From a virus: a stretch of DNA of 64,000 nucleotides. Positions 6,827 to 22,010 of this stretch are shown here, piece after piece; position 1 is the first letter of the stretch, and every line of letters begins with the position of its first letter. The stretch covers positions 57,066-121,065 of the IMG/VR virus record IMGVR_UViG_3300024265_000033; one strand, written 5' to 3'. The translations under genes and the position numbers were made by a program. Under the pieces are notes generated by a model, which worked only from the letters and a program-made list of their open reading frames with translations, searched no databases and had not been told where the DNA came from.

Positions 6827-8730
6827 TAAGCGGCCTCCTTGGATACCCCGTCGATTAACTCAACTTTGAAAGTATTGTCAACAATCGATTTGAATATCGA
6901 GTTGTGCTCAATCAATATTGTACACCCTTGGAGTGTTTCAATCAAGCGTAAAGCCTTTTCCATGCTAGATTCACTGAGATCTTTGAAATACTCGTCAAAA
7001 ATCCTCAGGTTCATGGGGCTATCCCCTCTTGCTGAAACTATTTCGGATAGTGCTAGATCAACCGCGAGTTGTATTCTTCTAAATTGGCCGCCCGAGTATA
7101 GCCCAAGAGGACGCTTGTGCCCGTCAATTGTGACTTCGACCTTGATTTTAGAAACTTCTCCGGAACCTGATAGGTTTGAGAAATCAATTTTAATAGGTAG
7201 TTCAAATAGTTCTGATAAGAATCTGTTTGATTTACGGGTAAGTTCGGAAAGTAGTCCTTGGAATACATATTGCTTTACCTCCTTGAACCCATCTTTCAGG
7301 GCCAATAGTCTGTTACCGTGGTCTGTTAGAACCTTTAGGTTTTCTCTGAGCGTCTTGGTTTCTTTCTGAGTCTTGGTTAGAGCGGTCTTGATTTCCTTGA
7401 GCTTCTTGTCAAAATGCGCTCCATCCCGAGCCTCTTCTTTTTCAATCATAGTGAAGATGCGGTCTTGCTCATCATTTTTACTAATCAGTTCTTTCTCCAC
7501 TAGAGAGATCTTTTTGAGCTGAGTCTCAACCTCCGAGAGTGCGTACTCTTCTCGCTTTAACATAGTCTTGATAGAAGAGATTCCTTCTTGTAGCTCACTC
7601 GTGGTAGGTATTTCCATGCCCTCCAACTCTTTTAGTAGGCCCTCTCGCTCTTGTGCGAATTCCTGCTTTTCATGTTGCTGTTCTTCTATAGCCACTTTGA
7701 AGTGGGATTTATCAATCTTTTCGAGTACGGTGCCACATGTCGGGCAGGCTTTGTCCTTGGGATTCTTGAGGTCTTTTATCTTATTGACGGCCTTGAGCAT
7801 CTGGCCTTCGAGCTTTTGTACTTGAAACTCCAGCCGCTTTACACTGAGCTTCTTAGACTCTAAGCCTCTGAGTTCTTCTTTGAATCTGGCTTTTTCTTCT
7901 ATAAGTTCTCTTATGCCCTTATTTATGCGGTCACGCTCTACCAGACATTCCTCTTCTGTGAACTCGGCGTGAGTCTTGAGGAGTTGTTTTACCTGATTCC
8001 CTATGGTATCCGAAGAATCCCGGAGTTCCGCTATCTTTTCCTGCTTTTCCCGGTTAAAGACAGATTTGAGTTGCTCTATATTGCTCAATTCCGACTCATA
8101 TCGCTCTTCTACGGATCTCTGACGCTCCAAGTCTTTCTTTATAGCCATGAGATCTAAGTCATTCTCTTTAATCTCAGCCAGTGTTTTCTTTCTGGCTCTG
8201 TCAAATATCATGAGGTCTTGGATCTCGGAGAGGATCTTACCCTTTTGATCCTCTGTGGCTGTTACAAATTTGTTAGGGTAGTTTTGGGCAAAGTACACGG
8301 ACTGACAAAAGGTTTCAAAGCTCATGCCGATGTACTCTTCAATCATCTTTTGAGTCTCTTTGGCATCCTTACCCTTTTCAGTGGTAGATCCCTTCCGCCA
8401 TGTGAAATGCATCCCTAGTTCATTTGGCTTACGAGTCCTGAATATGTACGTCTCGTCATCTTTACTGTCCTCGTTGAAATATACCTCAACTGAACAAGAT
8501 TTTTGCCCCTCTCGAATCACATCGTCTACATTGGCGTCTTTGGGAATCTTGCCGAACAGGCCCCAACATAGCGCATTTAGAATAGCTGATTTGCCCGATC
8601 CTTCGGGGGTATTGTCGTCATAATTAAAACCGTCAACTAGCGTAGTGCCTTCTGGAAAGTTAAATTCTAGATACTCCCAACTCAGAAAGTTCTTAACTAT
8701 AATCTTACTGGGCGTCTTATCGGATGTCAT
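6826..8730 (-). CDS. sbcC: SbcC/Rad50/gp46-like ATPase
   Basis: Walker A EGSGKS, coiled coil with CPTC Zn-hook, YSGGQ signature, IFDE Walker B, H-loop IEH. Confidence 0.92.
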   Translation of the reverse strand: MTSDKTPSKIIVKNFLSWEYLEFNFPEGTTLVDGFNYDDNTPEGSGKSAILNALCWGLFGKIPKDANVDDVIREGQKSCSVEVYFNEDSKDDETYIFRTRKPNELGMHFTWRKGSTTEKGKDAKETQKMIEEYIGMSFETFCQSVYFAQNYPNKFVTATEDQKGKILSEIQDLMIFDRARKKTLAEIKENDLDLMAIKKDLERQRSVEERYESELSNIEQLKSVFNREKQEKIAELRDSSDTIGNQVKQLLKTHAEFTEEECLVERDRINKGIRELIEEKARFKEELRGLESKKLSVKRLEFQVQKLEGQMLKAVNKIKDLKNPKDKACPTCGTVLEKIDKSHFKVAIEEQQHEKQEFAQEREGLLKELEGMEIPTTSELQEGISSIKTMLKREEYALSEVETQLKKISLVEKELISKNDEQDRIFTMIEKEEARDGAHFDKKLKEIKTALTKTQKETKTLRENLKVLTDHGNRLLALKDGFKEVKQYVFQGLLSELTRKSNRFLSELFELPIKIDFSNLSGSGEVSKIKVEVTIDGHKRPLGLYSGGQFRRIQLAVDLALSEIVSARGDSPMNLRIFDEYFKDLSESSMEKALRLIETLQGCTILIEHNSIFKSIVDNTFKVELIDGVSKEAA

Positions 8731-9662
8731 ACAACGTCATCCATTATCCTAAGTCCCAACTTTAGAGTCTCTTTATCTAGATTTTTGACATCCTTAGCCC
8801 ATGTACTAAACTTCTCGTGGTTAGAGGCAGTCTCTGAGATGGCAGCACTTCCGTACTCTTCCTCATCAGGACGTTCTATAAATTTTACTCCCGGGAATTT
8901 GGACTTATCCACACTTGCAATCGCTTCCGGCGTGCCTGTGAGGATTACCCGGTAATGATTATTAGATCTGGGTGCGAAGCCTTTAGTGGCTTCTACTTCT
9001 ACTGTGACGTGTCTGGGAAATGGTGTGGGAATGGTTGTGAGTTTTTGGGTTTTAGTATCGTAAGTGCCTATATATTTGTCCTGATCCGTCTCTCCAAAGC
9101 TATGTGAAAAGGGAGTGCCTAAGTATGTCAGATTTTTGTAATGTTGAAACATATGAAAGTGACCGGAAATAATAGGGATGCTGTCTGGTAGATCTGATTG
9201 ATCGATCCCGTTTTCTTCCACAAAGCCATTGCCGAAATCAAAGTCGTTGACGCCCTGATGAATAAATACGGCTGAACAAGTTTTCTCTAGGATCTTCAGC
9301 TCTTCTCGGAACTGTTTAAGATCGCTCAAGAAAGGCATGAATCCTAGGCCATCTTCGCTTTCCCAAGCCTCGTCAACAACCTGTACGTTTTTAAGCTCCT
9401 GTAAAGGTCTGAGTGCGTGATCGTTACACTCAAGGTTGTGCCAATCGTGGTTCCCTACCAATACAATATGCTCTAATTCAGAGTCTTTGAAGTAGTCAAA
9501 CCAAAGATTGAAACACTTTGATCTGACTACTTCTTTTGTGTCTAACATATCTCCGAGCCAAATGACAGGATTTGCTAGATCCTCGACCATAGCCATAAGG
9601 GTTATGATCTGATCGATATTGCTCGGTTTTGCATGGGGGTCGCCTACTACCGTATAATTCAT
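8727..9662 (-). CDS. sbcD: SbcD/Mre11/gp47-like nuclease
   Basis: GDPH, GD, GNHD, SGHFH, YLGTP motifs; coupled to SbcC-like gene. Confidence 0.9.
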   Translation of the reverse strand: MNYTVVGDPHAKPSNIDQIITLMAMVEDLANPVIWLGDMLDTKEVVRSKCFNLWFDYFKDSELEHIVLVGNHDWHNLECNDHALRPLQELKNVQVVDEAWESEDGLGFMPFLSDLKQFREELKILEKTCSAVFIHQGVNDFDFGNGFVEENGIDQSDLPDSIPIISGHFHMFQHYKNLTYLGTPFSHSFGETDQDKYIGTYDTKTQKLTTIPTPFPRHVTVEVEATKGFAPRSNNHYRVILTGTPEAIASVDKSKFPGVKFIERPDEEEYGSAAISETASNHEKFSTWAKDVKNLDKETLKLGLRIMDDVV

Positions 9663-10522
9663 TCCTTAAATTCCATTCCCTTGGCCGTAATGTCAATCAC
9701 TGTCGTTTTTGCCAGCCCGGTGGAATCTTCTACTAAATGGTTCTTATATAAAGTCCATTGAACTCTAGCTCCGATCCGTTTCTTCTTACCGCCTACTGTA
9801 GTTTCTATCCAAGCTTTACGAGAAGTCTGATAGGTTAGACTTGAGAAGAAATCTACTGCATTTCCGCCAGCATTTGATTTGCCGGGAGAGCCTAAGTTGT
9901 TGTAAGTTTGATTGATGACCAAGATGTGAACTTTGTCCTTCAATAATTTAGGGACAATCCTACGAAAGCCTCGCTTATTGATCTTAGCTGCGAGTCCTAA
10001 CTGGAGGGTATCGTCCACTTCAGATTCTACCTCTTTGATGGACGGAGTGTTGCCCAGCGAGTCAAAGATAACGAGGATTTTACCATCCGGGTCCGCATCT
10101 TTAATGGCGTTCCACCAATGGTCTATGCCATCATAAGCTTCTTCTAAATATTCTGGCTGAACCCGAGCCACATCGTCAGGATTCACTCCCCAAGATTCAA
10201 GTCGTGCTCGCGTGGTCTTCTTCTCTGTGTCTACTAGAATAACGTAGACGCCCTGTTCTAAGGCGCATCTCATAGCTTCGATTGTGGCTGAGGTCTTTCC
10301 CGAGTCTGTGTTGCCCGCGATCATGTGGACATACCCGAAGGGTAGGCCCTTAGTGCTCGCCATCTTTTGCCACCATTCCGGCATGATTACGAAATCGGAG
10401 TCTTCTGTAGGCGTAGTGAGTTCCGCGCCAGTTGAGATAGTTTTAGCCTTTTCCGCATCCTTAAAGGTCTTGCGGATCTTATCTGCCAAAGCTCCCATGC
10501 TGATTTTTTTCTTCTCGCTCAT
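9659..10522 (-). CDS. recA: RecA/UvsX-like recombinase
   Basis: Walker A GNTDSGKT, VDTE, IFDSL, INQ, GGNAVDF; lacks the C-terminal domain. Confidence 0.88.
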   Translation of the reverse strand: MSEKKKISMGALADKIRKTFKDAEKAKTISTGAELTTPTEDSDFVIMPEWWQKMASTKGLPFGYVHMIAGNTDSGKTSATIEAMRCALEQGVYVILVDTEKKTTRARLESWGVNPDDVARVQPEYLEEAYDGIDHWWNAIKDADPDGKILVIFDSLGNTPSIKEVESEVDDTLQLGLAAKINKRGFRRIVPKLLKDKVHILVINQTYNNLGSPGKSNAGGNAVDFFSSLTYQTSRKAWIETTVGGKKKRIGARVQWTLYKNHLVEDSTGLAKTTVIDITAKGMEFKE

Positions 10523-10726
10523 TCTTCTACCTCAATATCTAAATCGCTTAATATGTCATCCACAATCTTATTTGCACTTTTCTTATATATTCTATGAATT
10601 TCCAAGCTATTAAAGCCTTTAGTGCAGTCAAAACCAAAATCCTTCAGGAGAGTTTCAAATCCTACCTCTGCTCTGGCGTACAATCCATTGTAATCACTTA
10701 TGCTGATTTTTTTCTTCTCGCTCATT
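10497..10726. repeat. 27-bp exact direct repeat (10497-10523 and 10700-10726)
   Basis: ATGCTGATTTTTTTCTTCTCGCTCATT twice; encodes identical MSEKKKIS starts of two adjacent genes. Confidence 0.9.
10519..10725 (-). CDS. hypothetical protein (68 aa) sharing N-terminus with RecA
   Basis: ORF with SD; MSEKKKIS start. Confidence 0.65.
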   Translation of the reverse strand: MSEKKKISISDYNGLYARAEVGFETLLKDFGFDCTKGFNSLEIHRIYKKSANKIVDDILSDLDIEVEE

Positions 10727-10740
10727 TAGCCTCTCCTATT

Positions 10741-10899
10741 TCAGTAACTCTTGTGCTTCTCTAAATAATAAAAGAAGCTTAAACTAAGTATTCCAAAAAT
10801 AATACCAGTAAATGTGAAGCCGCTGGCAAATGCTACCATAGTTAAGGGTATAGTGCCGCAAATCAGTCCGCCACTTAGGGGGTATAGCCAATCCTTCAC
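10741..10899 (-). CDS. small two-TM membrane protein (52 aa)
   Basis: Hand-translated MKDWLYPLSGGLICGTIPLTMVAFASGFTFTGIIFGILSLSFFYYLEKHKSY; GTG start after AGGAG. Confidence 0.55.
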   Translation of the reverse strand: MKDWLYPLSGGLICGTIPLTMVAFASGFTFTGIIFGILSLSFFYYLEKHKSY

Positions 10900-11286
10900 T
10901 TAATCTCCTTTTGAAATCTGCCTATAAAATATATGAGCGTTCTCGAAGATCTTCAGATTGGCTTTGAGGAAATCAATGCGAGCACCTGACAGCTCTAGAG
11001 CTTCCCTAGCTTCTCTATAATCTTTCATAGCTTTCGCGTTCATTTTCTTTTCTGTAACTGTCTTACCCGGAGCTTCGTTAACACAATCCGCTTCCACTAC
11101 GTCAATCAGAGTCTGAAACCCGATCTTTTGCTCATCAAGGGAGAGCTTGACTGTCAATATGTTATGGCTAAGAGCTAGGAATTTAGGTGCGAGTTCTTCT
11201 GCTTCATGAATCTTCACATTCTTTGAAGGAAGCATCTCGATATGTTCGCTGATTAGTTTTTGAATGTCTTGGAAATCCATTTTCAT
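10900..11286 (-). CDS. helical protein, possible UvsY-like recombination mediator
   Basis: Size and helical character; first gene of the recA-sbcDC operon. Confidence 0.45.
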   Translation of the reverse strand: MKMDFQDIQKLISEHIEMLPSKNVKIHEAEELAPKFLALSHNILTVKLSLDEQKIGFQTLIDVVEADCVNEAPGKTVTEKKMNAKAMKDYREAREALELSGARIDFLKANLKIFENAHIFYRQISKGD

Positions 11287-11303
11287 CCTCCCGGGTAATA
11301 ACA

Positions 11304-11332
11304 ATAGTACCTCCTTTGCCGCGTAAAGTCAA
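11304..11332 (-). promoter_or_regulatory. sigma70-like promoter TTGACT-N17-TACTAT
   Basis: Consensus spacing; upstream of recombination operon. Confidence 0.65.
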
Positions 11333-11333
11333 T

Positions 11334-12308
11334 CTAAAAACTCAAGTTGACATTAAAGAAGTAATTTACTCCACTTTTAGTCCAACCCATTCCCGGCCCA
11401 ATATAAGTATTGGTTAGGATCGAGGGGAAAGGTCTATATGAAAAAGGCATAAGGTGTAGTCCGGGTTCCGCGAAATCCGTATCTACATCAAATCCTAGAT
11501 GTACAAACTTCCAAGTCAAATCATTTCTTGATTTACCGTATCCGCTTGTACTAAAATTTATGGCGGGCCTCATGAAGGCTCCACTTATATTGGCTCCGAC
11601 ATTGAACCCGCCATTAATATGAGGTGCCCAAAGTAGGAACCGCTCACGCACATCCGGTCGTGTCGGATCTATGTAAGCTACCCCGTCTACAATAGGCAAC
11701 GGATATGGTACATCTTTCCACTTTTTCAAGTCGGGTCGCCTCTTCTTAGCCAGTCCGTTTTCCTTGGCTATAAAATAGGCTTTAGAATATACCTTTACCC
11801 TTCCCGTTTTCTCATCAATAGTCTGTAGATTTTTGACGTGAATCTCAAATTCATAGTTTCTCTTATATGTTCGGCCATCGTGCTTGATAAGGATGTATCC
11901 AATGGGAGGGCTGTCTTCTCCCGCAATCCGTAGCTCGTTGAGTACATAATTTCGGGTACCTCTTTTTGTTTGGAAATAGTAGTCCGGTCCATCTTGCTTT
12001 TGGACATGTTTTCCAATGAGATACGTTGCGTCGGATAATAGCTTGATGCGCTCATCTTTGGATCTAGACACTTCAGCCCAATCCCGCTTAGCTCGCTTGT
12101 GTAAATCTTTTTGTCCTTGATAATCTGATTCAAGCTTTGCAGTATATTTGGTGAGTTGCTCATATTTTTCCTTCGTCCCTATTAAATCTGCGTACTTACG
12201 CTTTTCTGTGGCATCTCTGTATGCTGAATATGCGAAAAAGCCTATACCAAGGACTGTGGCCATGACGAGAAGTTGTCCTATGTATTTTTCGAATATCTTT
12301 TTTATCAT
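11334..12308 (-). CDS. membrane-anchored coiled-coil protein with beta-strand-rich C-terminus (spanin candidate)
   Basis: N-terminal TM, coiled coil, terminal YFFNVNLSF beta-signal-like motif. Confidence 0.5.
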   Translation of the reverse strand: MIKKIFEKYIGQLLVMATVLGIGFFAYSAYRDATEKRKYADLIGTKEKYEQLTKYTAKLESDYQGQKDLHKRAKRDWAEVSRSKDERIKLLSDATYLIGKHVQKQDGPDYYFQTKRGTRNYVLNELRIAGEDSPPIGYILIKHDGRTYKRNYEFEIHVKNLQTIDEKTGRVKVYSKAYFIAKENGLAKKRRPDLKKWKDVPYPLPIVDGVAYIDPTRPDVRERFLLWAPHINGGFNVGANISGAFMRPAINFSTSGYGKSRNDLTWKFVHLGFDVDTDFAEPGLHLMPFSYRPFPSILTNTYIGPGMGWTKSGVNYFFNVNLSF

Positions 12309-12547
12309 TTTTTGAACGCCTCAATCAATCTCTTGCCTTGATACCCGAGTACAGCCACAGTTAATGCCGTGAGGTCCTCAAACGTCGTGACTGGAGTCAT
12401 GGCGATCTTGACTAGAATAAGCATCATGGCAATATTGGTCAACGATACCAGATTGTTAGAATCATTGATACGCAAATACTGCATGACCTTCTTTGCGCCT
12501 TTGAAAATACCCTTTGCTTGTGCGTTGATTTTATTCGTTAGGCTCAT
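12305..12547 (-). CDS. holin-like small membrane protein
   Basis: 80 aa, two hydrophobic segments, basic termini. Confidence 0.5.
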   Translation of the reverse strand: MSLTNKINAQAKGIFKGAKKVMQYLRINDSNNLVSLTNIAMMLILVKIAMTPVTTFEDLTALTVAVLGYQGKRLIEAFKK

Positions 12548-13548
12548 TAAAACTCCCCGTCAACTATATTCAGGAAGTTCTCTCGCACCATTAGGGCTGC
12601 GCTTTGTCCTACATATTTAGTCACTTTCTTCCGGTCTGTTTTCTCCAGCGTGTCGAAAAACTCCTGCTCTTCTTTCAAGAAGTCCTCGATGATGTCCTTG
12701 GAAAACAGTCCCATAATCTTACCGAAATCCTTTTGTGTGACCTCTCCTATCTTGGAGAGGACGTTGCGGAGCCTGTTTTTAGTGATAAAAAGATTGGCTT
12801 TCATGAGAGCGATTGTGGCTGCCTCGCTGAGAGGCTCTGGAGGAGCTTTAGTCTTACGCGTTCCGCCGTCACCTGTCTTCTCTTTGAACTTGGCGTTTTT
12901 GTTCTTCAAAATCAGACGCTCCTGAGAAAATAGGAAGAGCGGCACAATAGGACGAATCACTACACCCTCACACATATTGCCTTCAATTTCCGGTAGGCCC
13001 AACTTAGCTGGGATTGTAGTCTGAAACTCATTAGAATACGCTAGACACTCTTCCAGAGAGCCTGTGAGTAATGTTTCGCTGTAAGGAATACCCGCTTCTT
13101 CGCATAAAGCATTTACATGCTCCACGGAGAGATACTTCCCATCCACTTTGATATCAAAGGCTACGAACTCTTGGCCGGGAGCATAGAAAACTCCCGATTG
13201 TACTTTTGATTGATCCACATTAGGTACATCCTTGTGTGGATAGATCCCTCCGTAGAGTTCGCCGAATACTGCGACTTCATCTGCGCCCGTGACTGCCAAG
13301 ATATTCAGTACGCTCTGTCCGTATTTCTTTATGATAGTGTCATAACAAAAGAACTTCTCGTCATCTTTTATAAAACCGGTGCGTTTTGCTGCCCGGATAC
13401 CTTCTACACTGGCCCATAGGCTGAAATTGGAGCCGTGGATCTTTTCTTGTACGACGAAGGTTTGCTTGGCATGACCCTCCTCTGTAATTCGGTTGACGAA
13501 TTTGTCCCGGTACGAATTTTCAATGCTACTGTATTTTTTGAATTCCAT
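12547..13548 (-). CDS. rnl2: RNA ligase 2 family
   Basis: EKIHGSNF (motif I), GELYG, FDI, EGVVIR, LKNK; C-terminal NRLRNVLSKIG domain. Confidence 0.92.
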   Translation of the reverse strand: MEFKKYSSIENSYRDKFVNRITEEGHAKQTFVVQEKIHGSNFSLWASVEGIRAAKRTGFIKDDEKFFCYDTIIKKYGQSVLNILAVTGADEVAVFGELYGGIYPHKDVPNVDQSKVQSGVFYAPGQEFVAFDIKVDGKYLSVEHVNALCEEAGIPYSETLLTGSLEECLAYSNEFQTTIPAKLGLPEIEGNMCEGVVIRPIVPLFLFSQERLILKNKNAKFKEKTGDGGTRKTKAPPEPLSEAATIALMKANLFITKNRLRNVLSKIGEVTQKDFGKIMGLFSKDIIEDFLKEEQEFFDTLEKTDRKKVTKYVGQSAALMVRENFLNIVDGEF

Positions 13549-13727
13549 TATTTAGCTCTTTCTTCTGCGCAAGTTTTGTTACATTCTTCCAAGGTGTCAC
13601 AAATAGCTAGAACATCAACTCCGTAGCTACATACAAATTTAGGTTCATATTTACTGCAAAAAGCTCCCTCTTTTACTGTATAACTGCAGCCAGTTAAAAA
13701 AAGAAGTAATATCAATGCTTTCTTCAC
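13548..13727 (-). CDS. small Cys-rich lipoprotein (59 aa)
   Basis: Hand-translated MKKALILLLFLTGC-SYTVKEGAFCSKYEPKFVCSYGVDVLAICDTLEECNKTCAEERAK; lipobox LTGC; overlaps both neighbours. Confidence 0.7.
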   Translation of the reverse strand: MKKALILLLFLTGCSYTVKEGAFCSKYEPKFVCSYGVDVLAICDTLEECNKTCAEERAK

Positions 13728-14386
13728 GCTGTTTTTCTTTTAGCTAACACGTCTTCGAACGCTGCGAGCACTCTAGCTTCAAGCTCTGCCATCGTGCCGT
13801 TGTTGTCAATCCGCTGGCACTTCTCGCCAATCTCAAGCACATACTTTTCAGAAGCATGTGGGTTATCGCCTAGCTGGGCTTCAGCTCCGTAGTTGTGAAC
13901 GAAGAACGGAAAGAATTCGGCTTCTGTGTTCTCAGCAAAGAAGTTGTACTCATTCCAAAAGCGCATGTCAGTCACCACAAAGATACCATCTTCTGGCAAA
14001 TCAAGGGTAGCTCCGAGGCAATGAACTTGCTCTTCCACATTCCTAAGGACTTCCGTGCCGACATATTGAGCCGCTTCCCTTGGGGTGTGTAACACTTTAC
14101 CGATGTGCGGTCGGATATGGGCATCAAAATTAGGCTTGAGGCCAAAAGATTCAATAAGTTCAACGGTGTTGATGGAATCTAAATTGATAAGGTTTTCAAG
14201 TTCCTTTTCCTTCACGGCAGGATCGTCCAGAGAAGCCCGGGGGATTCCCAAGACCTTGGAACAAGTATCTTTGAGTCGGGCAGCCAGAGTGACTTCCACT
14301 ACCGAAGGGAATGCCTTCTTGATAATCTCAAATGATGTTGTTTTACCTGATCCTTTTACTCCAGTTAGTCCGATGAATGTCCTCAT
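13724..14386 (-). CDS. deoxynucleoside monophosphate kinase
   Basis: GVKGSGKTT, PREAAQYVGTE, VTDMRFWNE, HASE, IDNNG. Confidence 0.88.
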   Translation of the reverse strand: MRTFIGLTGVKGSGKTTSFEIIKKAFPSVVEVTLAARLKDTCSKVLGIPRASLDDPAVKEKELENLINLDSINTVELIESFGLKPNFDAHIRPHIGKVLHTPREAAQYVGTEVLRNVEEQVHCLGATLDLPEDGIFVVTDMRFWNEYNFFAENTEAEFFPFFVHNYGAEAQLGDNPHASEKYVLEIGEKCQRIDNNGTMAELEARVLAAFEDVLAKRKTA

Positions 14387-14622
14387 TTAATTTCTCCTTT
14401 ATCTACTAATTTAACGCCTTTAATTATAGTCGTAACTTTTACGGGTACCATTTTGAATAATGCCCCCTCTTCCTTTTCGTCAGAAACAATCGCCCTTTTA
14501 TCGTTCATCAAATAGAAAGTAACTTCGTCAGTTTCGTCATTGTATTCGCACACATAAGGAATATAATTTCCAGTGGCATCTACTAGTCTTTTGTTATCCG
14601 CGTTTTGGGGGTTATAAATCAT
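14383..14622 (-). CDS. hypothetical protein
   Basis: ORF overlapping both neighbours. Confidence 0.6.
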   Translation of the reverse strand: MIYNPQNADNKRLVDATGNYIPYVCEYNDETDEVTFYLMNDKRAIVSDEKEEGALFKMVPVKVTTIIKGVKLVDKGEIK

Positions 14623-17312
14623 TTCGAATCCTTTAAGTTGTCACAAATAATAGGGTCGGCAATCATTGGAATGTCAATTCTTTTAGCAAAATCATTGTCT
14701 TCCATACCTACTTTCAACAAGCCTGCTCCAAATTCCGACTGATCTTCTCGGACATAAGCCGTGATCTCGTCATGAATTTGCAAACAAACATACCCATCAA
14801 TTTTATTCTGCACGAAAAATCTCGTGGTGTCAAGCATTCCTTTATTGGTAATATGCCCACCCAGACCTTGAATGGGTACGTTCTTGGCATTGTTGAGTTC
14901 ATTCTTGTACAAACTTCTCAAGTATGCCCAGCCGCCCTTTTCTTCAATTTGGTTCAAGAACATGTCAAATTTCTTTGCGAAATCCTTTAGGCCCTCTTCG
15001 TCCAGCTCTATTAGAAGGGGAGCGGAGGGGCTCATGCATTCGAGATCTTTTTTCTTGGCATCTAGAAAGGTTTCCATAGCAATTCCGCGCTCATCTAGAA
15101 GACCTTGAATGAAAGGAGCCCATCTATAATGTCGGCGACGACCTATAATATTTTCGACGTAGCCTTTCGTGACACAGTCTAGTTCTTGCCTTTCCATATA
15201 TTTTCGCAAATCCGGATAAGCGTTCAAATAATTTTCACGCCATGCCCATCCACGTTCGACGTCAAGAACTTCTTTTTCTTTCTTGGTCTTTCTGTCGATA
15301 TACTTTTTCTTAAATCCCATGAGGTTAGCCACTTGAGGTCCCCGCGCTCCGTAGGGAATACCTAAAACGACGGGCTTCACACTTTGTCTAAGTTCGGGGT
15401 TTATCTTCTTCAAAAAATTAGGGGCGTTGGGGTCCGGAGAATACTTGCCTTCCGTGTCCTCAACGTCGCAATAAACCTTAGAATACATATCAAGGTTCTT
15501 GTGGTAGATATCCTTCAATCCTTTGTCCCCACTGACAAATGCGAAACACCTTGGTTCGAGTGAAGAGTAATCGGCGTTGACAATCTTGTAGCCTTCTGGA
15601 GCCACAAATCCTTGCTTGACGACCGAATAACAAATGATGTTCTTTTTCACATGCTTACAGTCTCCGCAGATCATAGTCACTAAGATGTTGCCCTGATAGC
15701 TGAGGGATACCTTCTTGGAATCGCACTTGGAGCAGGACCCTAGTTCCTCAACCTTAGGTAGGGTCTGTAGGTTGAATCCTCCTCGACATGAGAACCGTCC
15801 TGAGGTAGTTCCGGCCTGATCCATGTTCATGTGTAGCCAGCCGTTGTTGTGTAGCGTGACGGCCAAGTTAATGTACTTTGAGAGCAAGTCTCTGAGCTTC
15901 CTAAACAGCATTACTTCTTCAATGAAGTCGTACTTCCCTAAGAAAAATTCTTCTAATACCTCAGCCTTCATGGAAGGAATAGGATTCTCTGGAGTGGCTG
16001 AGTCTGTTTGAGGTAGGCTCTTCTTCTCTACTCCCAGCTTATCGCACATCAGCCAGCGCATATGGGCATCTGAGTATGCATTAAACCTGTAGCGACGTCC
16101 CTCTACTGCAGCATAGAGTTCATCCTTGATCTTCTTCAGCCGCTTAGAAGAGTATTTGATCTCTCCTTCGCCTAGGATATAGTCCCATAGCCAGTGTGGC
16201 TGCTCTTTCTGAGCTACCTTGACGGCAGGCTTTGAGATCGAATTAGTAGTCACCTCTTCGGGCTTACCTTTGTATTTTGTAATCGTAGGGTATTCTAGGC
16301 CTTCTAGTTCGATTATCTTGGAGATCAGCCGCTTCTTAGAGATTGCCTCTTCCATTGATTTACCGACGCTGAAGTCGTCTAGCTTATCCCCCAGCCTTTT
16401 GATAACCGAGTCTTCAAACTTATCTGCCCGAGCTTTGACTTCTTTCTGGAGTTTTTCGAAATAATCTACATCGATCTTAACCCCCCCGAACTGCATAGGT
16501 ATTACTACTTCTCTGCAAAGGGGCATGATTTCGTCTTCAAAGAAAAGCTGGAAGTGTTTCTCATCGTATTCAGATTCGAGCTTTTGCATACCTACTTCAA
16601 ACAATCCGTAAGTAAGGGCCGTATCTTTACAAGCGTACTTAGAAACGATACTAGGCTCGCCTCTCCAGACGTGGCCTTTCTTCCCTCCATTGTTAATAAC
16701 GGATTCGATCATTTCGAGTTGCTCTTCATTGGCTGCACGGGTCATGTCGATACCGAGTTCTTTTTGCCACAATACTGCCGTGTCCTTTAGGCCTGTTTTC
16801 GTGGACTCGTCGATGAAGTGCTTGAGCAGTCGGGTATCGCAGAACAAATGATTCCCTAGATAGATGCCCATATTGTAGGCGACCATATTACAGTCAAATG
16901 GCGCATTGTGCATCAAGAGCCCATTGTGGCTAGTCAACCATCGGGCCATATATTTCTTGATGAAGTCCGGGGCTTGATATTGCTGTGGAGTAACTTTCTC
17001 GTGGTATTCTTTGCCAGTCCAAGCATCTACGAACCAACCATCTGTAATGATCTGACGCTTTACCTTATCGATTGATCTTTCTTTTTCAGAAGCGGGATCT
17101 GGATGCCATTCTAAGAGTGGAATATACCAACCATTTTTGGCACTCGTGGAGATAGAAAATCCAATAATTACGTTCCTGAAAAAATGCAGGCCGTTTGTCT
17201 CTGTATCAAATGCCATCAAATCAAACTTGGGCTTCAAATCTTTATCGAGTAGCTCTTTGTCTAGGGCTTCTAATTTGGCTTTGGTATCTACATGTACAAA
17301 TTCAGTCTTCAT
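14619..17312 (-). CDS. polA: family A DNA polymerase with 3'-5' exonuclease
   Basis: DTET, HNAPFD, YACKD exo motifs; TSGRFS, DYSSLEPR (A), RQSVKPVVLGIPYG (B), QIHDE (C). Confidence 0.95.
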   Translation of the reverse strand: MKTEFVHVDTKAKLEALDKELLDKDLKPKFDLMAFDTETNGLHFFRNVIIGFSISTSAKNGWYIPLLEWHPDPASEKERSIDKVKRQIITDGWFVDAWTGKEYHEKVTPQQYQAPDFIKKYMARWLTSHNGLLMHNAPFDCNMVAYNMGIYLGNHLFCDTRLLKHFIDESTKTGLKDTAVLWQKELGIDMTRAANEEQLEMIESVINNGGKKGHVWRGEPSIVSKYACKDTALTYGLFEVGMQKLESEYDEKHFQLFFEDEIMPLCREVVIPMQFGGVKIDVDYFEKLQKEVKARADKFEDSVIKRLGDKLDDFSVGKSMEEAISKKRLISKIIELEGLEYPTITKYKGKPEEVTTNSISKPAVKVAQKEQPHWLWDYILGEGEIKYSSKRLKKIKDELYAAVEGRRYRFNAYSDAHMRWLMCDKLGVEKKSLPQTDSATPENPIPSMKAEVLEEFFLGKYDFIEEVMLFRKLRDLLSKYINLAVTLHNNGWLHMNMDQAGTTSGRFSCRGGFNLQTLPKVEELGSCSKCDSKKVSLSYQGNILVTMICGDCKHVKKNIICYSVVKQGFVAPEGYKIVNADYSSLEPRCFAFVSGDKGLKDIYHKNLDMYSKVYCDVEDTEGKYSPDPNAPNFLKKINPELRQSVKPVVLGIPYGARGPQVANLMGFKKKYIDRKTKKEKEVLDVERGWAWRENYLNAYPDLRKYMERQELDCVTKGYVENIIGRRRHYRWAPFIQGLLDERGIAMETFLDAKKKDLECMSPSAPLLIELDEEGLKDFAKKFDMFLNQIEEKGGWAYLRSLYKNELNNAKNVPIQGLGGHITNKGMLDTTRFFVQNKIDGYVCLQIHDEITAYVREDQSEFGAGLLKVGMEDNDFAKRIDIPMIADPIICDNLKDSK

Positions 17313-19320
17313 GTTTTCCGCCTTTAATTATTTGCATTTTAGGCCTGAGTCTTTTCATAGGGGCTTTGCCATACTTCTTGACCTGTTTCTTATCTTCTAC
17401 TTCTCTTAGTGCAATAGCTTTGGAATTCAGCTCATCGAATTGAGCCATGTCCGCATCTGTCATATCGACGAAGTCTTCTTTATCTGGCAAAAATTTGAGT
17501 AGGACTCTCTGTAGTTCTGTAATCTTATCCTTACTGGCTGTACTGTGACGGATTTTGGCATACTGAAAAGCGGTTACAAAGAAATTGTGGGCTTTACACT
17601 GATCTCTCAAACGGTTCAAGGGTCGCCACACTCCAATGATGTAATCTGAATACCATTCGAACTTCGACGATCCGAACGCTGCGTTCTTACCGATAGGGAT
17701 ATCGCCTTCTCCGTCTTTTGCCTTGGTAGTTTGAGATTGGACGATCAAAAAACAATCGAGTTTCTGGCTAAGTTTCTTCAGCACCTGACAGATTCCGTCT
17801 TTGGTCAAAATAACTCGTTTTTCGTTGACATATTTGGATACATAATTTGACTTGGCTGCATCAAAACTGGGTTTAACGGTTAGATTGAAATCCCCTTCCA
17901 CGGCATCTAAGTGATCGATGCACACAACTCCGGGCTTTTTGCCGAGTTCTTTGCAAGTATCTCGTACTATTTGATAGATATTTTGTATGTTGGGGCCAAT
18001 GTCGTTATCCTCATCCATGAAGTCTTCTGGGGAAATCACGAAAAGACGCTCATAATACTCAGTATTACCCCCTACGAGAGTCTCCCAGCGTTCCATTATC
18101 TCTGCGTCATTCATCTCTAGGTTAAAGTAGAAAAATATATCATCGCTGTCTGGATTGTTTCGTATGAATTCCTGAAAGATCTTTAATGTGATTGAGGTCT
18201 TACCTACCCCCGTTCCTGCGATCAATCCCAAGACTTGTTTTTTCCGCCATTTTTTATGCAGGGCATTTGTGTCCATGAAGTAGGGACCGTTTACCAAGTC
18301 TCCTACCTTGCTTGTTATACCCATCCTCTTCTTTTGCGCGGCACTCTTGACAGCCTTGCTGCCCTTCACTGAGGCCCATGCTTTAGTTATTGTTCCTATG
18401 GCGTAATCGTACCGGGCCTGTCCATTTTTAGTGAGAGCTTTTTGAGTCTGCATCATGACCTGAATAGCGTCAGACCTATCATAGTCGTAGTAGAATAAAA
18501 GATTGGCCAGAGCCAAGTCGGCAGACGATCTGTCCCCGTGTGTGGAAACAGGATCATAAAAAATACTATTGAGCTTCTGCCGCTTTTCTAAGTCTCTAAT
18601 AAAGCGGTCGGGAAGTTGATTGGGATCGAACAATGCTCCTAAGTCCGGGGCCTGATAACGACCTTCAATTTTATCTATATGTGTTTGAATATACTCTTCG
18701 TCTTTTTCCGTCAGTCGGGGTAGCAGATCCGCCAACTCAACTGCGGTGTACTCTCTATCTGAAGGTTCGAACCCTTTTGCGTATGCAGCCAACTTAAAAT
18801 TATCAGCCTGCTTTGTGTTGAAGTATCCGGGCATTCTCATCACTTGCCACACAGTCTTCACTGAGTCGTCGGTATCGAAGTGCTTAATTAAAAGTAGTTG
18901 GAGGGCTAAGAAAGTTTCTGAGTCATCTTCTAGGTCGGATATTTTCCAATAAGCATGTACTCCATTACCGGAATCAACTGCGTAGGTGGGTTTTAATTTG
19001 AATTTGTTTAATTTTTCTAGGAATTCGTCTTTGGTGTCATAGACTTCATCTTTCAAATCCATGTCCACATATACAAATGCAAAGTGATCGACGTCTCTAC
19101 CTGCAGTCCAGTATCCTACGGCTTTGGCTTCCGTGGGACTATTGGGCATAAAGTAGATGTTATACCCTAGATCGTTCTTTTCCTTTAAGAACTTGGGGGG
19201 AAAATCCGTGTCATCACCTTCATATGTATCCGGCCCTTTTATCTCCCTTACGAAGCGGGGATTGGGCTTTTTGTGAATCTTCGATTTACCCCAATCTGGT
19301 TTGATTAGCCTAAAACGCAT
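17302..19320 (-). CDS. primase-helicase (RepB/AEP-like primase plus DnaB-like helicase)
   Basis: VDMD, DSGNGVHAYW, MRMPG, DRSSAD; helicase GTGVGKT, LEM, CIDHL, QSQ. Confidence 0.85.
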   Translation of the reverse strand: MRFRLIKPDWGKSKIHKKPNPRFVREIKGPDTYEGDDTDFPPKFLKEKNDLGYNIYFMPNSPTEAKAVGYWTAGRDVDHFAFVYVDMDLKDEVYDTKDEFLEKLNKFKLKPTYAVDSGNGVHAYWKISDLEDDSETFLALQLLLIKHFDTDDSVKTVWQVMRMPGYFNTKQADNFKLAAYAKGFEPSDREYTAVELADLLPRLTEKDEEYIQTHIDKIEGRYQAPDLGALFDPNQLPDRFIRDLEKRQKLNSIFYDPVSTHGDRSSADLALANLLFYYDYDRSDAIQVMMQTQKALTKNGQARYDYAIGTITKAWASVKGSKAVKSAAQKKRMGITSKVGDLVNGPYFMDTNALHKKWRKKQVLGLIAGTGVGKTSITLKIFQEFIRNNPDSDDIFFYFNLEMNDAEIMERWETLVGGNTEYYERLFVISPEDFMDEDNDIGPNIQNIYQIVRDTCKELGKKPGVVCIDHLDAVEGDFNLTVKPSFDAAKSNYVSKYVNEKRVILTKDGICQVLKKLSQKLDCFLIVQSQTTKAKDGEGDIPIGKNAAFGSSKFEWYSDYIIGVWRPLNRLRDQCKAHNFFVTAFQYAKIRHSTASKDKITELQRVLLKFLPDKEDFVDMTDADMAQFDELNSKAIALREVEDKKQVKKYGKAPMKRLRPKMQIIKGGKHED

Positions 19321-19343
19321 TCGTTCCTACCTTTAGTAAAAAA

Positions 19344-19437
19344 TGGGCAGTTTTTACATGGAGATGCCCAGCTCCCCTAAGGGACAAAGAGACAACTTTC
19401 GCTAAGACGGTGGGGGAGGCTGCGAAAACTCCTCGTC
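19344..19437 (-). ncRNA. structured intergenic RNA with tandem H-type pseudoknots
   Basis: GGAG/CUCC with UGGGCA/UGCCCA; GGAG/CUCC with UUUUCGC/GCGAAAG; followed by a U6 tract. Confidence 0.5.
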
Positions 19438-19443
19438 CGATAA

Positions 19444-19752
19444 CTATTCTTCAGTCTCTTGTTCTTCTGCAGCATCTGGATTTGACAGATTTACAGAAAT
19501 ATTGTACTGTAGGTTCTTTGGCAGGTCTTTCTTAGCACCCGGAGCCTTCTTAGGCTCAAAGCAACTCAAGAAGTTGACCTTAAAATATTTCTCAGACTCT
19601 TTGTCTAGGAAATACAGTTCTCCGTGATAATCGTCCGCCGAAATATAGATTCTTTCTTCGTCCTTCTTATCCGTCCAGATTGCTCCGACTTTACGCCAAG
19701 TTGCATCTGACTTTCCTTTACTACTTTTCTTACCTTTTTTTGGTAATCCCAT
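19444..19752 (-). CDS. hypothetical protein, possible small ssDNA-binding protein
   Basis: WRKVGAIW beta motif, aromatic residues, acidic C-tail; upstream of primase-helicase. Confidence 0.45.
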   Translation of the reverse strand: MGLPKKGKKSSKGKSDATWRKVGAIWTDKKDEERIYISADDYHGELYFLDKESEKYFKVNFLSCFEPKKAPGAKKDLPKNLQYNISVNLSNPDAAEEQETEE

Positions 19753-19780
19753 GGTATTTTCCTCCTATCATAGGTACTTG

Positions 19781-20314
19781 TTATCTCTTCAAACTGGCAG
19801 TAGAATTTCCGCTACCAACTGAATTTGTCATCCCGTGTTTAGCCCTTAGTGCCGCAATTTTATCCGACACCGAAGACTCTTTTTTAGTTTCGACTGGAGC
19901 TTCCTCTTTTGCTTCTACTTCAACTGCAGGCTCTTCCGCCGCAGCTTCGCTAGGTTGAGCATCTGATTCATCCTCTTCCTGCGCTTTAGCACGATTCTTC
20001 TTCAGTCTCGCTAAACCTCTTAATCCTTTAGATTTCTTTTTGGCAGGCTCTGCCTTTGCTTCTACGGCCTCTGTCTCTTCTTTTTCTTCTACAGCTACCG
20101 TGGCTTCGCCATCAGCTTCCGACATGGCTACGAGTTCTGCTTTCTTGGCCTCTAAATTAGCTTCAACAAAAGCTTTCACTCGGGCAAGAGTATCTTCTGG
20201 CTTCTCTCCTTCTTGAACAGAAGAAGAAAACGAAATGTGACAGTCTGCGCTGCCGTAGTTTGGAAGTCCGACCTTAATAGTCAAACCATATGAAATTTTA
20301 TCTTGTGTTTCCAT
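19781..20314 (-). CDS. hypothetical phage protein with low-complexity E/A/K tail
   Basis: ORF with GGGAGG SD behind a promoter. Confidence 0.7.
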   Translation of the reverse strand: METQDKISYGLTIKVGLPNYGSADCHISFSSSVQEGEKPEDTLARVKAFVEANLEAKKAELVAMSEADGEATVAVEEKEETEAVEAKAEPAKKKSKGLRGLARLKKNRAKAQEEDESDAQPSEAAAEEPAVEVEAKEEAPVETKKESSVSDKIAALRAKHGMTNSVGSGNSTASLKR

Positions 20315-20331
20315 TTAAGCCTCCCATATTC

Positions 20332-20363
20332 TACAGTTTACTGTAAACTGTACGATTAGTCAA
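20332..20363 (-). promoter_or_regulatory. sigma70-like promoter TTGACT-N17-TAAACT overlapped by 21-bp palindrome
   Basis: TACAGTTTAC-T-GTAAACTGTA at 20332-20352 covers the -10. Confidence 0.65.
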
Positions 20364-20366
20364 TAC

Positions 20367-22010
20367 TTATTTCTTTTTCCTGCGCCACATACCTTTAATT
20401 GAATTCAAAAGCTGTCTAGAGCCGTTCGGGTATTGAACGATATTTGATTGCATCCAAGAAGATCCGCCTTTATTGAATCCTTGATCTAAAGGACCGTTTG
20501 TTCCCGTTTGCCATGCGTCTCTTAAAATTCCCGGAGTATGTGAATGTCCGATGTTACAGGCATGGTATTGCGCTTCATGATTCGCCAAGGAACCTCTTGA
20601 TCCGCTTGGGCCTAAATGACCGTGCGCTCCACATTCAATTCTGGATAGTCTGTAGGATTCGTCTTCTTTCAGCCATTTTGTTTTCCTTATGGCTGAGGGA
20701 CTCATGTATTTTTCTATACCGAATTGACAAGGCATCTTTCCTTCTATGGCAGCCTTAGTCAGTTCGCTGGCTGTTTTAAGATTATCTCGATCTTTGATCC
20801 AATCTCCGGACTCTAGCCAACGGAGTATGAAATCATCGTGGTTTGAGTAGGGAATAATACATCCGTGTGTTGCCCATGCTTGAACTTCTGAAATTTCGTC
20901 GGCAGTGATCTGCAACTCCGCATCCAGTTTTACGAGTCCTTCTTGGGCTAGAATTGCCTGAGTGATTCTTTTCTTCCTATCATGGTGTGAGATTGATTTA
21001 CCGTTGAAGACGTCATGAAGAAAGATATATTTAGGCTTCAGAAGGGCCGCTTGTTCTTTCGTGGCTTGCTTGGCTATAGGATCGGTTTCTCCTGCGTGCC
21101 AATCTCCGGCGATTATCGCCTCAGCGTCCATGCGAAAAACCTTGCCACTAGGTTTATAATAGTCGCCGAGATCCACGAAATTTCCTGATTTTGGCTCCGC
21201 TTGGATTTGTCTGAAGTGGTAGTGGTCATTAGCGTCTATCTCCACAATTATTGCGCCCATCTTGTGATCGTAATCTGCTAGGTACGCGGTTCTTTGCGAC
21301 ATATATCTGTCGGTATCGTAAGTAGGAACTGTAATAGCTCCCGTTCCCATAGAAACGTGAGGAAGTTTATGCTTTTGGTTGGCAATAGGGCGCATTCTCT
21401 GTTTCGGAGATCCGAAAATGAATGAACAGTCTCTACCAATTCTACCCAATCCTGTGGTAGGGTCAATTTGTTTCGCGCTCATCATAATGCCGCTGATATA
21501 AATATTTGAATTCAAAGCTAAATCACCGAAAACTAAACTGTCGTTGGGGATCTTACTATCTAGTTCGAATCCTACATTGTTTCCATTTACTGCTTTAGAT
21601 GCAGGATCTTTGACGGGAATGACTAAGAGCTTGGCGTTATTCTTTTCACAGTAACTATTGAGACTCTTTAGGAATTTTTCATGTACGGGGGCTCCACCTA
21701 CAGCACATGTGACCACAAACCTATTATATTTGGCTGCAGATTCCTCAATTTTGGCAAAGTTTTTCTTATTGAATAGCGTTTCGTCAATGATATTCTCGAA
21801 AACCTTTGGGTACGCTTCCCGAGCAGCTTCTTTCATGTCTCGAACAGTCTCGAAAAGGTGACGCACAGTATTACGAGTAACGCCTAATTTCTGTAGATCT
21901 GCTTCTGTGGGATTTCTCTTGTTTTTACGCACAAAAGTAGCATAAAGCTTTAAGATCTTTGCTTGTTTCTGTTCTCTTGTAAGTATTTTTTTCTTTTGTT
22001 TTTTAGCCAT
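20367..22010 (-). CDS. large-phage protein with C-terminal metallophosphoesterase-like domain
   Basis: GDWHAG, HD, NHD, HGH, GHSH motifs; basic helical N-terminus. Confidence 0.7.
   Translation of the reverse strand: MAKKQKKKILTREQKQAKILKLYATFVRKNKRNPTEADLQKLGVTRNTVRHLFETVRDMKEAAREAYPKVFENIIDETLFNKKNFAKIEESAAKYNRFVVTCAVGGAPVHEKFLKSLNSYCEKNNAKLLVIPVKDPASKAVNGNNVGFELDSKIPNDSLVFGDLALNSNIYISGIMMSAKQIDPTTGLGRIGRDCSFIFGSPKQRMRPIANQKHKLPHVSMGTGAITVPTYDTDRYMSQRTAYLADYDHKMGAIIVEIDANDHYHFRQIQAEPKSGNFVDLGDYYKPSGKVFRMDAEAIIAGDWHAGETDPIAKQATKEQAALLKPKYIFLHDVFNGKSISHHDRKKRITQAILAQEGLVKLDAELQITADEISEVQAWATHGCIIPYSNHDDFILRWLESGDWIKDRDNLKTASELTKAAIEGKMPCQFGIEKYMSPSAIRKTKWLKEDESYRLSRIECGAHGHLGPSGSRGSLANHEAQYHACNIGHSHTPGILRDAWQTGTNGPLDQGFNKGGSSWMQSNIVQYPNGSRQLLNSIKGMWRRKKK

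Follow-up and report, generated by a model that had tools for sequence, protein, structure and literature searches.

A phage protein family with an anchor-like N-terminus and a putative six-stranded outer-membrane barrel

We analysed a 64,000-nucleotide stretch of viral DNA (hereafter the window), which comprises bases 57066-121065 of the 121,065-bp virus record IMGVR_UViG_3300024265_000033, a record rated complete by CheckV. Our subject is a minus-strand open reading frame (ORF) of 324 amino acids (aa), here called gene X. The data suggest, at a little less than an even chance, that gene X represents a new family of phage envelope proteins, in which an inner-membrane N-terminal anchor and an outer-membrane barrel on one chain would bridge the envelope. 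Gene X is akin to phage outer-membrane proteins (OMPs) and to spanins, and it may well turn out to be novel in kind. A first-pass annotation of the region 11334-13727 had proposed a protein that spans both membranes in the reverse of the known single-chain topology, as part of a new lysis architecture. The bridging part of that proposal is backed by anchor and barrel hallmarks over ~200 homologs; the lysis architecture was not supported.

The C-terminus of gene X resembles an outer-membrane barrel

Gene X ends in YFFNVNLSF, an end that we compared with the consensus of the beta-signal that the machinery for beta-barrel assembly (BAM) recognises. In the 197 homologs with a length of at least 280 aa, the chain ended in F in 114, L in 78, I in 2, W in 1, K in 1 and R in 1. 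Positions −3, −5 and −7 of the same homologs were aliphatic, and positions −2, −4 and −6 were Gly, Asn, Ser or Thr. Of the 156 ORFs in the 121-kb genome that reach at least 60 aa, gene X alone had an end of this kind. This count, together with the F, L, I or W end of 195 of the 197 homologs, indicates that the beta-signal-like C-terminus is not due to chance, and the signal-like end noted by the first-pass annotation was confirmed.

We modelled gene X with AlphaFold2 (AF2). The model built on 41 sequences was mediocre (pLDDT 75.3), and the model built on 146 sequences reached pLDDT 95.3 and pTM 0.79. Gene X was modelled as a helix (residues 2-34), short strands and a helix (66-76) up to residue 85, a beta-rich part to about residue 213, and six long strands. 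These last strands (230-240, 243-260, 263-274, 283-291, 301-310 and 313-323) form the barrel, and the loops on its far side are only 2, 8 and 2 residues long. The short hairpin connections suggest an up-and-down strand order. The beta-rich middle and the amphipathic C-terminal strands that had been read from the sequence were therefore recovered by the AF2 model and by column statistics. The partial or oligomeric shared barrel that had been envisaged was not; the modelled unit is closed and six-stranded, and the barrels of a dimer stay separate.

Column statistics over 198 members showed that all six strands alternate a hydrophobic with a Gly/Asn/Ser/Thr position. Charged residues made up ~0-3% on both strand faces, except at strand ends near 265-267. 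Glycines were near-invariant at G234, G256, G258, G272 and G304, and conserved aromatics (W227, Y257, W266, Y291, Y302 and F324) lie at the ends of the strands, on the same side as the chain termini. Because a soluble barrel would show a charged and variable outer face, the charge-free outer face and the strict terminal Phe/Leu bear the signature of a lipid-embedded, BAM-type barrel, as far as residue patterns can tell. Gene X thus has the C-terminal beta-signal and the amphipathic dyad-repeat strands with an aromatic girdle that are features of BAM substrates. It was not modelled with a closed barrel of an even number of at least eight strands, and no match above gathering score was found to the known OMP sequence families in Pfam (OmpA_membrane, OMP_b-brl, Ail_Lom and others).

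An exhaustive comparison of residues 226-324 with the PDB gave the designed six-stranded barrel BBn6 as the best match (9xzt_A; Z 9.9, root-mean-square deviation 2.5 A, 82 of 90 residues aligned, 12% identity). The next matches were the LptG jellyroll (Z 6.5) and a designed transmembrane barrel (6x9z, Z 6.2). The OMP barrels NspA (Z 5.4) and OmpW (Z 5.3) scored like soluble eight-strand barrels (TbpB C-lobe, Z 5.4; also fHbp and nitrobindin); NspA, OmpW, OmpA and the soluble eight-strand barrels all fell within Z 4.5-5.5. OmpA-type clusters were also matched in an Atlas structure search, at TM-scores of only 0.25-0.39. BBn6 is a soluble de novo design with n=6 and S=8, and its designers reported that they found almost no natural counterpart (PMC12478100). 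It shares the six-stranded barrel with gene X, whereas the strands of gene X are longer and their residue pattern is OMP-like.

These matches bear on a quite unlikely alternative, in which gene X is an inner-membrane-anchored periplasmic regulator or inhibitor and its barrel is soluble, with a hydrophobic core and no insertion into the outer membrane. The BBn6 match at Z 9.9 and the OMP-like scores of the TbpB C-lobe, fHbp and nitrobindin speak for it, and we know of no natural OMP with six strands. However, the exposed face of such a barrel would be nearly pure Gly/Asn/Ser, ~0-3% charged at most positions, with near-invariant glycines. Moreover, a six-strand core hardly seems to have room for some 28 large hydrophobic residues, of which 12 are aromatic (an estimate not made from coordinates), and the strict C-terminal Phe/Leu of 192 of the 197 members would have no obvious reason.

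The N-terminal segment is probably an uncleaved anchor

Hydropathy analysis supported the N-terminal transmembrane (TM) helix that had been noted earlier in the 324-aa protein (residues about 9-30). A hydrophobic 15-residue window of at least 1.4 was present in 196 of 198 members, and the median uncharged stretch was 19 residues, starting near residue 10. A small-x-small motif of the peptidase type stood at the segment end in 79 of the 198 members, compared to 72.2 ± 6.4 in shuffles. The end of the segment was rich in aromatics (1.8 of the last 6 residues), and the net charge was +1.55 ahead of the uncharged stretch and +0.16 behind it. The lack of enrichment of the peptidase motif, the aromatic end and the positive-inside bias favour an N-in signal anchor; on these patterns the N-terminus of gene X is probably uncleaved rather than a cleaved peptide. 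There was no lipobox in gene X, and a lipobox-like string occurred in 4 of 198 members, which is at chance level.

A conserved beta-signal combined with a probably uncleaved anchor could also mark a BAM decoy, that is, an inner-membrane-tethered substrate that engages BamA/BamD, is not released and shuts down host OMP assembly. Beta-signal mimicry is known to inhibit BamA (10.64898/2026.09.25.754295). We consider a decoy very improbable: the whole barrel is conserved, including the glycines and the aromatic ring, which points to a barrel that really folds.

The mid-domain is predicted to form a homodimer

Residues 36-85 are helix-prone by sequence and were disordered in the shallow, 41-sequence model. 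In the confident model they form short strands and one 11-residue helix (66-76), with no long coil. The coiled coil reported by the first-pass annotation was therefore not retained; a profile search of PDB sequences gave coiled-coil look-alikes only, and these were weak (EnvC, E 0.0028). Foldseek found no PDB match at E up to 0.001 for either gene X model. The best 50 listed matches of each exhaustive PDB comparison cover only residues ~220-324 and barely probe the mid-domain, and the few further structure matches that touch residues 89-211 do so weakly (~42 residues aligned).

Two copies of residues 36-324 gave ipSAE values of 0.84, 0.84 and 0.83 in three runs, compared to 0.01 for the best of three controls. 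Among proteins of solved structure, 20 of 30 same-chain pairs and 1 of 23 single chains attained the ipSAE mark; because the dimer was run on its own alignment, these calibration counts apply only roughly. At least 97% of the contacts agreed between runs, and the partner pLDDT was at least 87. The interface is symmetric and runs through the mid-domain (85-108, 122-130, 136-141 and 145-177, with self-pairs at 139, 156, 158 and 160). It reaches the barrel only at the termini-side ends (230-231, 259-263, 297-301 and 322-324). The barrel walls lie outside the interface, and the two barrels remain unmerged. Gene X is thus predicted to be a homodimer.

Gene X belongs to a large unnamed family

A word-indexed search gave 99 homologs of gene X at E <= 0.001, nearly all of 300-340 aa. 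They often stood on contigs of 105-121 kb, and one was on a contig of 168 kb. Exhaustive phmmer searching gave 131 representatives at 50% identity with lengths mostly of 300-350 aa; 41 of them had E < 1e-30. Every named entry among the homologs reads "hypothetical protein". Gene X had no Pfam family at E up to 0.1 and no PHROG match. No match was found in 50,697 deposited phage genomes (megablast, tblastn), and a scan of the bacterial genome collection with close patterns found no copy. BFVD held one clear structural relative, A0A6J5RKD4 (E 8.2e-12), which is also uncharacterised. Two domain names that surfaced as leads in Atlas and BFVD, DUF6808 and DUF6549, were rejected, as neither had a profile match in the genome at E up to 10; no paper on either name was found in the literature searched.

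Distant members align to gene X mainly over the last 100 residues. They retain an N-terminal hydrophobic segment, a spacer and a barrel that ends in F or L, and it is the spacer that differs. P0161 (173 aa) has a hydrophobic N-terminus, a helical, coiled-coil-like spacer (read by eye) and the same barrel, and P0214 (208 aa) has a hydrophobic N-terminus, a Thr/Lys-rich linker and the same barrel. Forms of 340-350 aa carry long helical stretches ahead of the beta-domain (read by eye). Neither P0161 nor P0214 had a tblastn match in the 50,697 phage records at E up to 1, and viral scans with both as queries found no locus. What the superfamily conserves would thus be the two ends together, as expected of a tether more than of a protein with a specific binding function in the periplasm. 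The retention of TM segment, variable spacer and barrel in distant members fits a membrane-bridging role.

A proposed envelope bridge and its relation to known systems

We propose the following sequence of steps for an envelope-bridging gene X protein. The protein would be exported by Sec, and its N-terminal helix would stay in the inner membrane, N-in. The beta-domain would dimerise in the periplasm, and BAM would insert the C-terminal mini-barrel into the outer membrane, so that one polypeptide ties the inner to the outer membrane. The periplasmic part is compact, and its full folding would pull the membranes close; as in spanin logic, peptidoglycan would restrain this step and degradation of the wall would release it. 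The resting form would then be more extended, by way of the helix-prone residues 36-85; otherwise the N-terminus would be cleaved and the protein would be a plain OMP.

Disruption of the outer membrane at lysis, a spanin-like role, is the most likely single role, and is itself rather doubtful. It is our best single guess because of the tether logic, because no spanin could be recognised and because both ends are conserved. Close behind it come envelope protection and superinfection exclusion. A more specific version is unlikely: gene X would be a single-chain "barrel spanin" of reverse polarity, with an N-terminal inner-membrane helix and a BAM-inserted six-stranded outer-membrane mini-barrel, whose dimer pulls the membranes together once the wall is cut. 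This would make it the missing outer-membrane disruptor of widespread uncultured phages of 110-170 kb.

Two-component spanins of the lambda Rz/Rz1 type (defined in PMC6139136) resemble the proposed gene X bridge in that an N-terminal segment anchors them in the inner membrane, their periplasmic part is dimeric and they connect physically to the outer membrane; wall-restrained folding is proposed for both. In gene X the outer-membrane link is a proposed covalent beta-barrel and not a separate lipoprotein. Of the features of an i-spanin, gene X has the predicted N-in TM helix; its confident model lacks the long coiled coil of the periplasmic domain, and the lipobox scan gave no cognate o-spanin gene embedded in it, overlapping it or adjacent to it. 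Gene X also lies outside any lysis cassette and has no sequence similarity to Rz/Rz1. With the u-spanin T1 gp11, gene X shares a single chain proposed to reach both membranes and a beta-rich periplasmic part. The polarity is reversed, however. The u-spanin has an N-terminal lipobox and a C-terminal TM helix, whereas gene X has an N-terminal TM helix, an amphipathic beta C-terminus and neither the lipobox Cys nor the C-terminal TM helix.

Phage OMPs of the Lom/Ail type and those of huge phages, including DUF680/IPR056410, are also small phage-borne barrels with a C-terminal Phe-type end. The huge-phage preprint describes six-stranded phage OMPs (DUF680/IPR056410) with a predicted pairing into 12 strands, and its OMPs were selected for cleavable signal peptides (10.64898/2026.10.24.761521). 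Gene X instead has an anchor-like N-terminus, a 190-aa periplasmic domain and two separate barrels in the dimer model. VirB10, TonB and TamB/AsmA-like proteins combine an N-terminal inner-membrane anchor with a C-terminal part that acts at or in the outer membrane; they have no sequence or fold match to gene X. None of them is known to use a BAM-type C-terminal mini-barrel. We found no paper on a barrel-type spanin or on the gene X family in mostly non-subscription literature, and the OMP tables that supplement 10.64898/2026.10.24.761521 might list the family.

If the proposed topology is true, gene X would be a class of protein not described in the literature searched, inserted in both membranes of a diderm cell. 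Its six-stranded barrel would be smaller than that of any solved natural OMP and, among natural barrels of the outer membrane, the smallest. Three questions could then be tested: the minimum barrel size for BAM, the assembly of a substrate tethered to the inner membrane, and the breach of the outer membrane by phages without spanins of the Rz/Rz1 type. The size of the family (at least 131 clusters at 50% identity) and the high-confidence model make gene X a practical target for expression, fractionation and structure determination.

Gene neighbourhoods and phylogeny of gene X homologs

We gathered 29 related loci (handles beginning with L) in three rounds (15 + 1 + 13). Thirteen of them (L007, L009-L017, L021, L028 and L031) showed part of one gene order: polA, deoxynucleoside monophosphate (dNMP) kinase, 0-2 small ORFs, gene X, a homolog of a 134-aa protein, UvsX, SbcD and SbcC. 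The dNMP kinase gene was syntenic in L007, L009-L012, L014-L017 and L031, and it directly abutted gene X in L009, L012, L014 and L017. The 134-aa homolog came directly after gene X in seven loci (L009, L012, L014, L016, L017, L021 and L028). SbcC lay just downstream of gene X in L019.

Gene X stood alone in L005, L006, L023, L025 and L026, where it converges on minus-strand genes that include homologs of a structural-region ORF of the window's genome; L029 and L032 may also be of this type. The neighbours of the stand-alone type included tail-fibre and minor-tail families. Upstream of the stand-alone gene X we observed a divergent ORF of 103-110 aa (L005:2362-2673(-), L006:7601-7915(-), L025:1637-1951(-) and L026:2342-2674(-)). 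The two sequences read, those of L005 and L006, consist of a coiled coil and a C-terminal TM segment. The window's genome encodes a similar 140-aa protein in its structural-gene region (L001:12940-13362). Other contexts were seen in L004, L008 and L018, where gene X has a replication initiator on its upstream side or genes for portal and capsid on its downstream side, and L022, L024, L027, L030 and L033 were too short to judge.

PHROG scans covered 30 immediate neighbours and, within four genes of gene X, 112 of 143 neighbours, after 31 that matched known replication genes had been dropped. No endolysin, holin or spanin family was found beside gene X in the 29 loci by these scans (in the wider scan, among the 25 of 111 families listed). 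A weak Rz-like match (E 0.0024) was the sole exception, and it came from an 88-aa coiled-coil ORF without a visible hydrophobic stretch.

In a maximum-likelihood tree of 23 copies, the window copy and L021 grouped with copies of the stand-alone type at a fork with support 92/94 (not starred) and stood outside the main syntenic clade, which had support 95/91. On this tree, 3 changes of the own-lineage label are required. The grouping suggests that gene X may have been exchanged between phage lineages.

Evidence for and against an envelope bridge

The loci and the tree also bear on a rather unlikely alternative, in which gene X is an ordinary phage OMP with a cleaved signal peptide, a dimeric periplasmic domain and a small barrel. 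Made early, it would remodel or mask the envelope by superinfection exclusion, receptor or BAM interference, or stabilisation. An ordinary OMP shares all of the barrel and beta-signal evidence, and the compactness of the model is in keeping with an OMP that has a periplasmic domain. OMPs encoded by phages have been described, among them six-stranded ones predicted to pair, and Lom blocks LamB (10.64898/2026.10.24.761521). Gene X sits in a replication-type cluster or stands alone beside tail-fibre genes, and the grouping of the window copy with copies from non-syntenic phages (92/94) suggests exchange like that of a host-interaction gene. An autotransporter-type phage protein, A0A6J5R861, appeared as a weak row only. 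Against an ordinary OMP, the signal-peptidase motif was not enriched, and the predicted external loops of 2, 8 and 2 residues offer little surface to mask a receptor. TM segment, spacer and barrel are kept even where the mid-domain is replaced. In addition, wherever an own-lineage locus extends over the region, gene X keeps its syntenic place, a pattern not usual among exclusion genes.

Several points weigh against the envelope-bridging protein that we prefer. The in/out orientation of the barrel faces is itself deduced from residue patterns, the best structural match to the barrel is the soluble BBn6, and the smallest solved monomeric natural OMPs known to us have eight strands, not the six of gene X. 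In the compact model the helix ends at residue 34 and the domain packs under the barrel; as estimated from secondary structure, the folded dimer would hold the membranes a few nm apart. Such a span is easier to reconcile with an OMP whose signal is cleaved, or with a protein of the inner membrane only, than with a resting bridge. For its head protease and RecA-like genes, the phage has its best matches in Bacillus and Staphylococcus phages, which have Gram-positive hosts.

Three further points count against a role in lysis. Within the neighbours scanned, none of the 29 loci had an endolysin or holin family next to gene X; its own-lineage position is inside the polA - dNMP kinase - X - UvsX - SbcCD cluster; and it is about as conserved as the replication genes. 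Typical spanins are less conserved than replication genes. In T4, the exclusion genes imm and sp lie among replication genes and the spanins lie next to RNA-repair genes; by this example, position alone decides nothing.

The gene X locus and its variable slot

Positions 11334-13727 hold four co-directional minus-strand genes, which encode a 59-aa lipobox protein, RNA ligase 2 (Rnl2), an 80-aa protein and gene X (Table 1). Upstream of the four lie the genes for dNMP kinase and a family-A DNA polymerase. Downstream of gene X, the order is the 134-aa protein, two small ORFs, the UvsX/RecA-like recombinase, SbcD (phrog_100 5.3e-35) and a 634-aa ORF that we call SbcC-like from its position after SbcD alone. 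The surroundings of gene X in the window are thus a DNA replication/recombination cluster. By position, the 134-aa protein could be a UvsY-like recombination mediator. The 134-aa, 52-aa and 68-aa window proteins had no Pfam or PHROG match. Promoter and terminator scans of 8000-20500 were at chance (22 versus 21.9 expected, and 11 versus 11.5), which allows no statement on transcription units or timing.

Table 1. Coordinates of gene X, its parts and nearby genes in the window
Feature	Position	Strand	Basis
Gene X, 324 aa	11334..12308	-	ORF; member of a large unnamed phage protein family
N-terminal hydrophobic helix, residues about 9-30	12219..12284	-	Hydropathy
Beta-rich domain, predicted periplasmic, dimer interface (residues 36-222)	11643..12203	-	AF2 strands, two-fold model
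Six long amphipathic strands, closed barrel (residues 223-324)	11337..11642	-	DSSP of AF2 model
Beta-signal-like terminal strand, last 10 residues	11337..11366	-	Homolog column counts
80-aa small membrane protein	12305..12547	-	Hydropathy: one TM at 33-51
RNA ligase 2 (Rnl2), 333 aa	12547..13548	-	PF09414 9.8e-23, PF18043 4.4e-22, phrog_548 6.5e-75
59-aa Cys-rich lipobox protein	13548..13727	-	Lipobox scan (LTGC), 6 Cys
dNMP kinase	13724..14386	-	phrog_139 2.3e-29; conserved upstream neighbour in the phage's own lineage
134-aa helical protein	10900..11304	-	Conserved downstream neighbour of gene X, ahead of UvsX
UvsX/RecA-like recombinase	9659..10522	-	PF00154 1.8e-15; phrog_97 5.3e-37
SLT lytic transglycosylase, signal-peptide-like N-terminus, 210 aa	3446..4078	-	PF01464 1.8e-07

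The first-pass annotation had described the 80-aa gene as an overlapping two-TM holin-like gene. The overlap is real, as the start of gene X and the stop of the 80-aa ORF share 4 nt (ATGA). Hydropathy gave one clear TM segment rather than two, and no holin family matched in Pfam or PHROG, including a relaxed Pfam search. The 80-aa protein had 2 homologs besides itself among 5.8 billion clusters. Among the loci, a homolog lay near gene X only in L021, a 91%-identical relative, with a 204-aa ORF between the two (28 other loci). A longer, 158-aa relative was found 7 kb from gene X in L008. The nearest muralytic gene is 8 kb away from the 80-aa gene, and the 80-aa protein is probably an unrelated filler of its slot. 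A 52-aa protein (10741-10899, minus strand) with two overlapping hydrophobic segments by hydropathy, and no Pfam (including relaxed Pfam) or PHROG match, looks more holin-like than the 80-aa ORF.

The Cys-rich lipoprotein that had been placed one gene upstream does carry a lipobox and six Cys; it lies two genes upstream, with the 80-aa gene and Rnl2 between; Rnl2, which takes up much of the interval 11334-13727, had gone unmentioned. Its start overlaps the stop of the dNMP kinase gene, and its stop overlaps the start of Rnl2. Neither Pfam nor PHROG gave a family for it, and the 28 other loci contained no counterpart of it and no ORF that matched Rnl2. The slot between dNMP kinase and gene X (window 12547-14386; also L009-L017 and L021) held 0-2 unrelated small ORFs in relatives, several of them membrane proteins, and Rnl2 was found only here. 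This lack of co-conservation shows that the slot ahead of gene X is variable. On our preferred reading, the 80-aa gene, Rnl2 and the lipoprotein are fillers of this slot and do not belong to a gene X system.

These observations bear on the lysis cassette in which the 80-aa gene would encode the holin and gene X the spanin, with the 59-aa lipoprotein as an accessory. The ATGA overlap suggests coupled translation of the 80-aa gene and gene X, small membrane proteins lie upstream of gene X in L004, L015, L016 and L018, and a gene for an exported transglycosylase (SLT) follows 7.3 kb downstream in the same direction. However, the small upstream proteins of those four loci are only 20-25% identical to the 80-aa protein and matched no holin family. 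For the 80-aa protein 2 homologs were found, for gene X at least 99. In L021, the closest relative, the 80-aa gene does not adjoin gene X, and in L009, L012, L014 and L017 dNMP kinase abuts gene X directly. The lipoprotein has no counterpart in any locus. Because its neighbours are not co-conserved, the cassette is largely refuted and has very little probability left. The new lysis architecture of the first-pass annotation was not supported: neither the holin-like gene nor the lipoprotein is a conserved neighbour, and no endolysin lay beside gene X in the loci examined.

Lysis genes and host of the phage

We searched the whole genome in six frames for five peptidoglycan-hydrolase families. SLT alone matched, once, and PF13539, PF00959, PF01510 and PF02557 were not found. 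The SLT gene lies among nuclease and phosphoesterase genes, and SLT homologs stand at the corresponding place in L014 and L017. The SLT protein could be a Sec-exported endolysin. A lipobox scan of the genome gave four ORFs, of which one is multi-TM and the other three are plausible lipoproteins. In this simple scan, none of these three was embedded in or next to a gene whose product has a predicted N-terminal TM helix, and thus no canonical spanin pair was seen. The nearest lipobox ORF to gene X, 1.2 kb upstream, is not conserved. No protein of the genome other than gene X has a predicted outer-membrane feature.

A lipoprotein of 88 aa is encoded between two ClpP-like protease genes (L002:13363-13629 (-), genome 33363-33629). 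It has collagen-like Gly-X-Y repeats (PF01391 E 0.00035, below the cut-off).

The best cultured relative of the polymerase is that of a Flavobacterium phage, at 26% identity, and the lineage has no close cultured relative. A Bacteroidota host, considered from this polymerase and from BFVD rows, was rejected. A Shine-Dalgarno-like motif stood ahead of 80 of 137 genes, compared to a background of 10%, which argues against it; Shine-Dalgarno usage is linked to host phylum. At 62777-63124 (+) we observed an unusual phage cargo gene, which encodes a 115-aa protein with an N-terminal hydrophobic segment, a CxxCH haem motif and sub-threshold cytochrome c matches. Gene X, the exported SLT and this cytochrome-c-like protein suggest that the host may be diderm.

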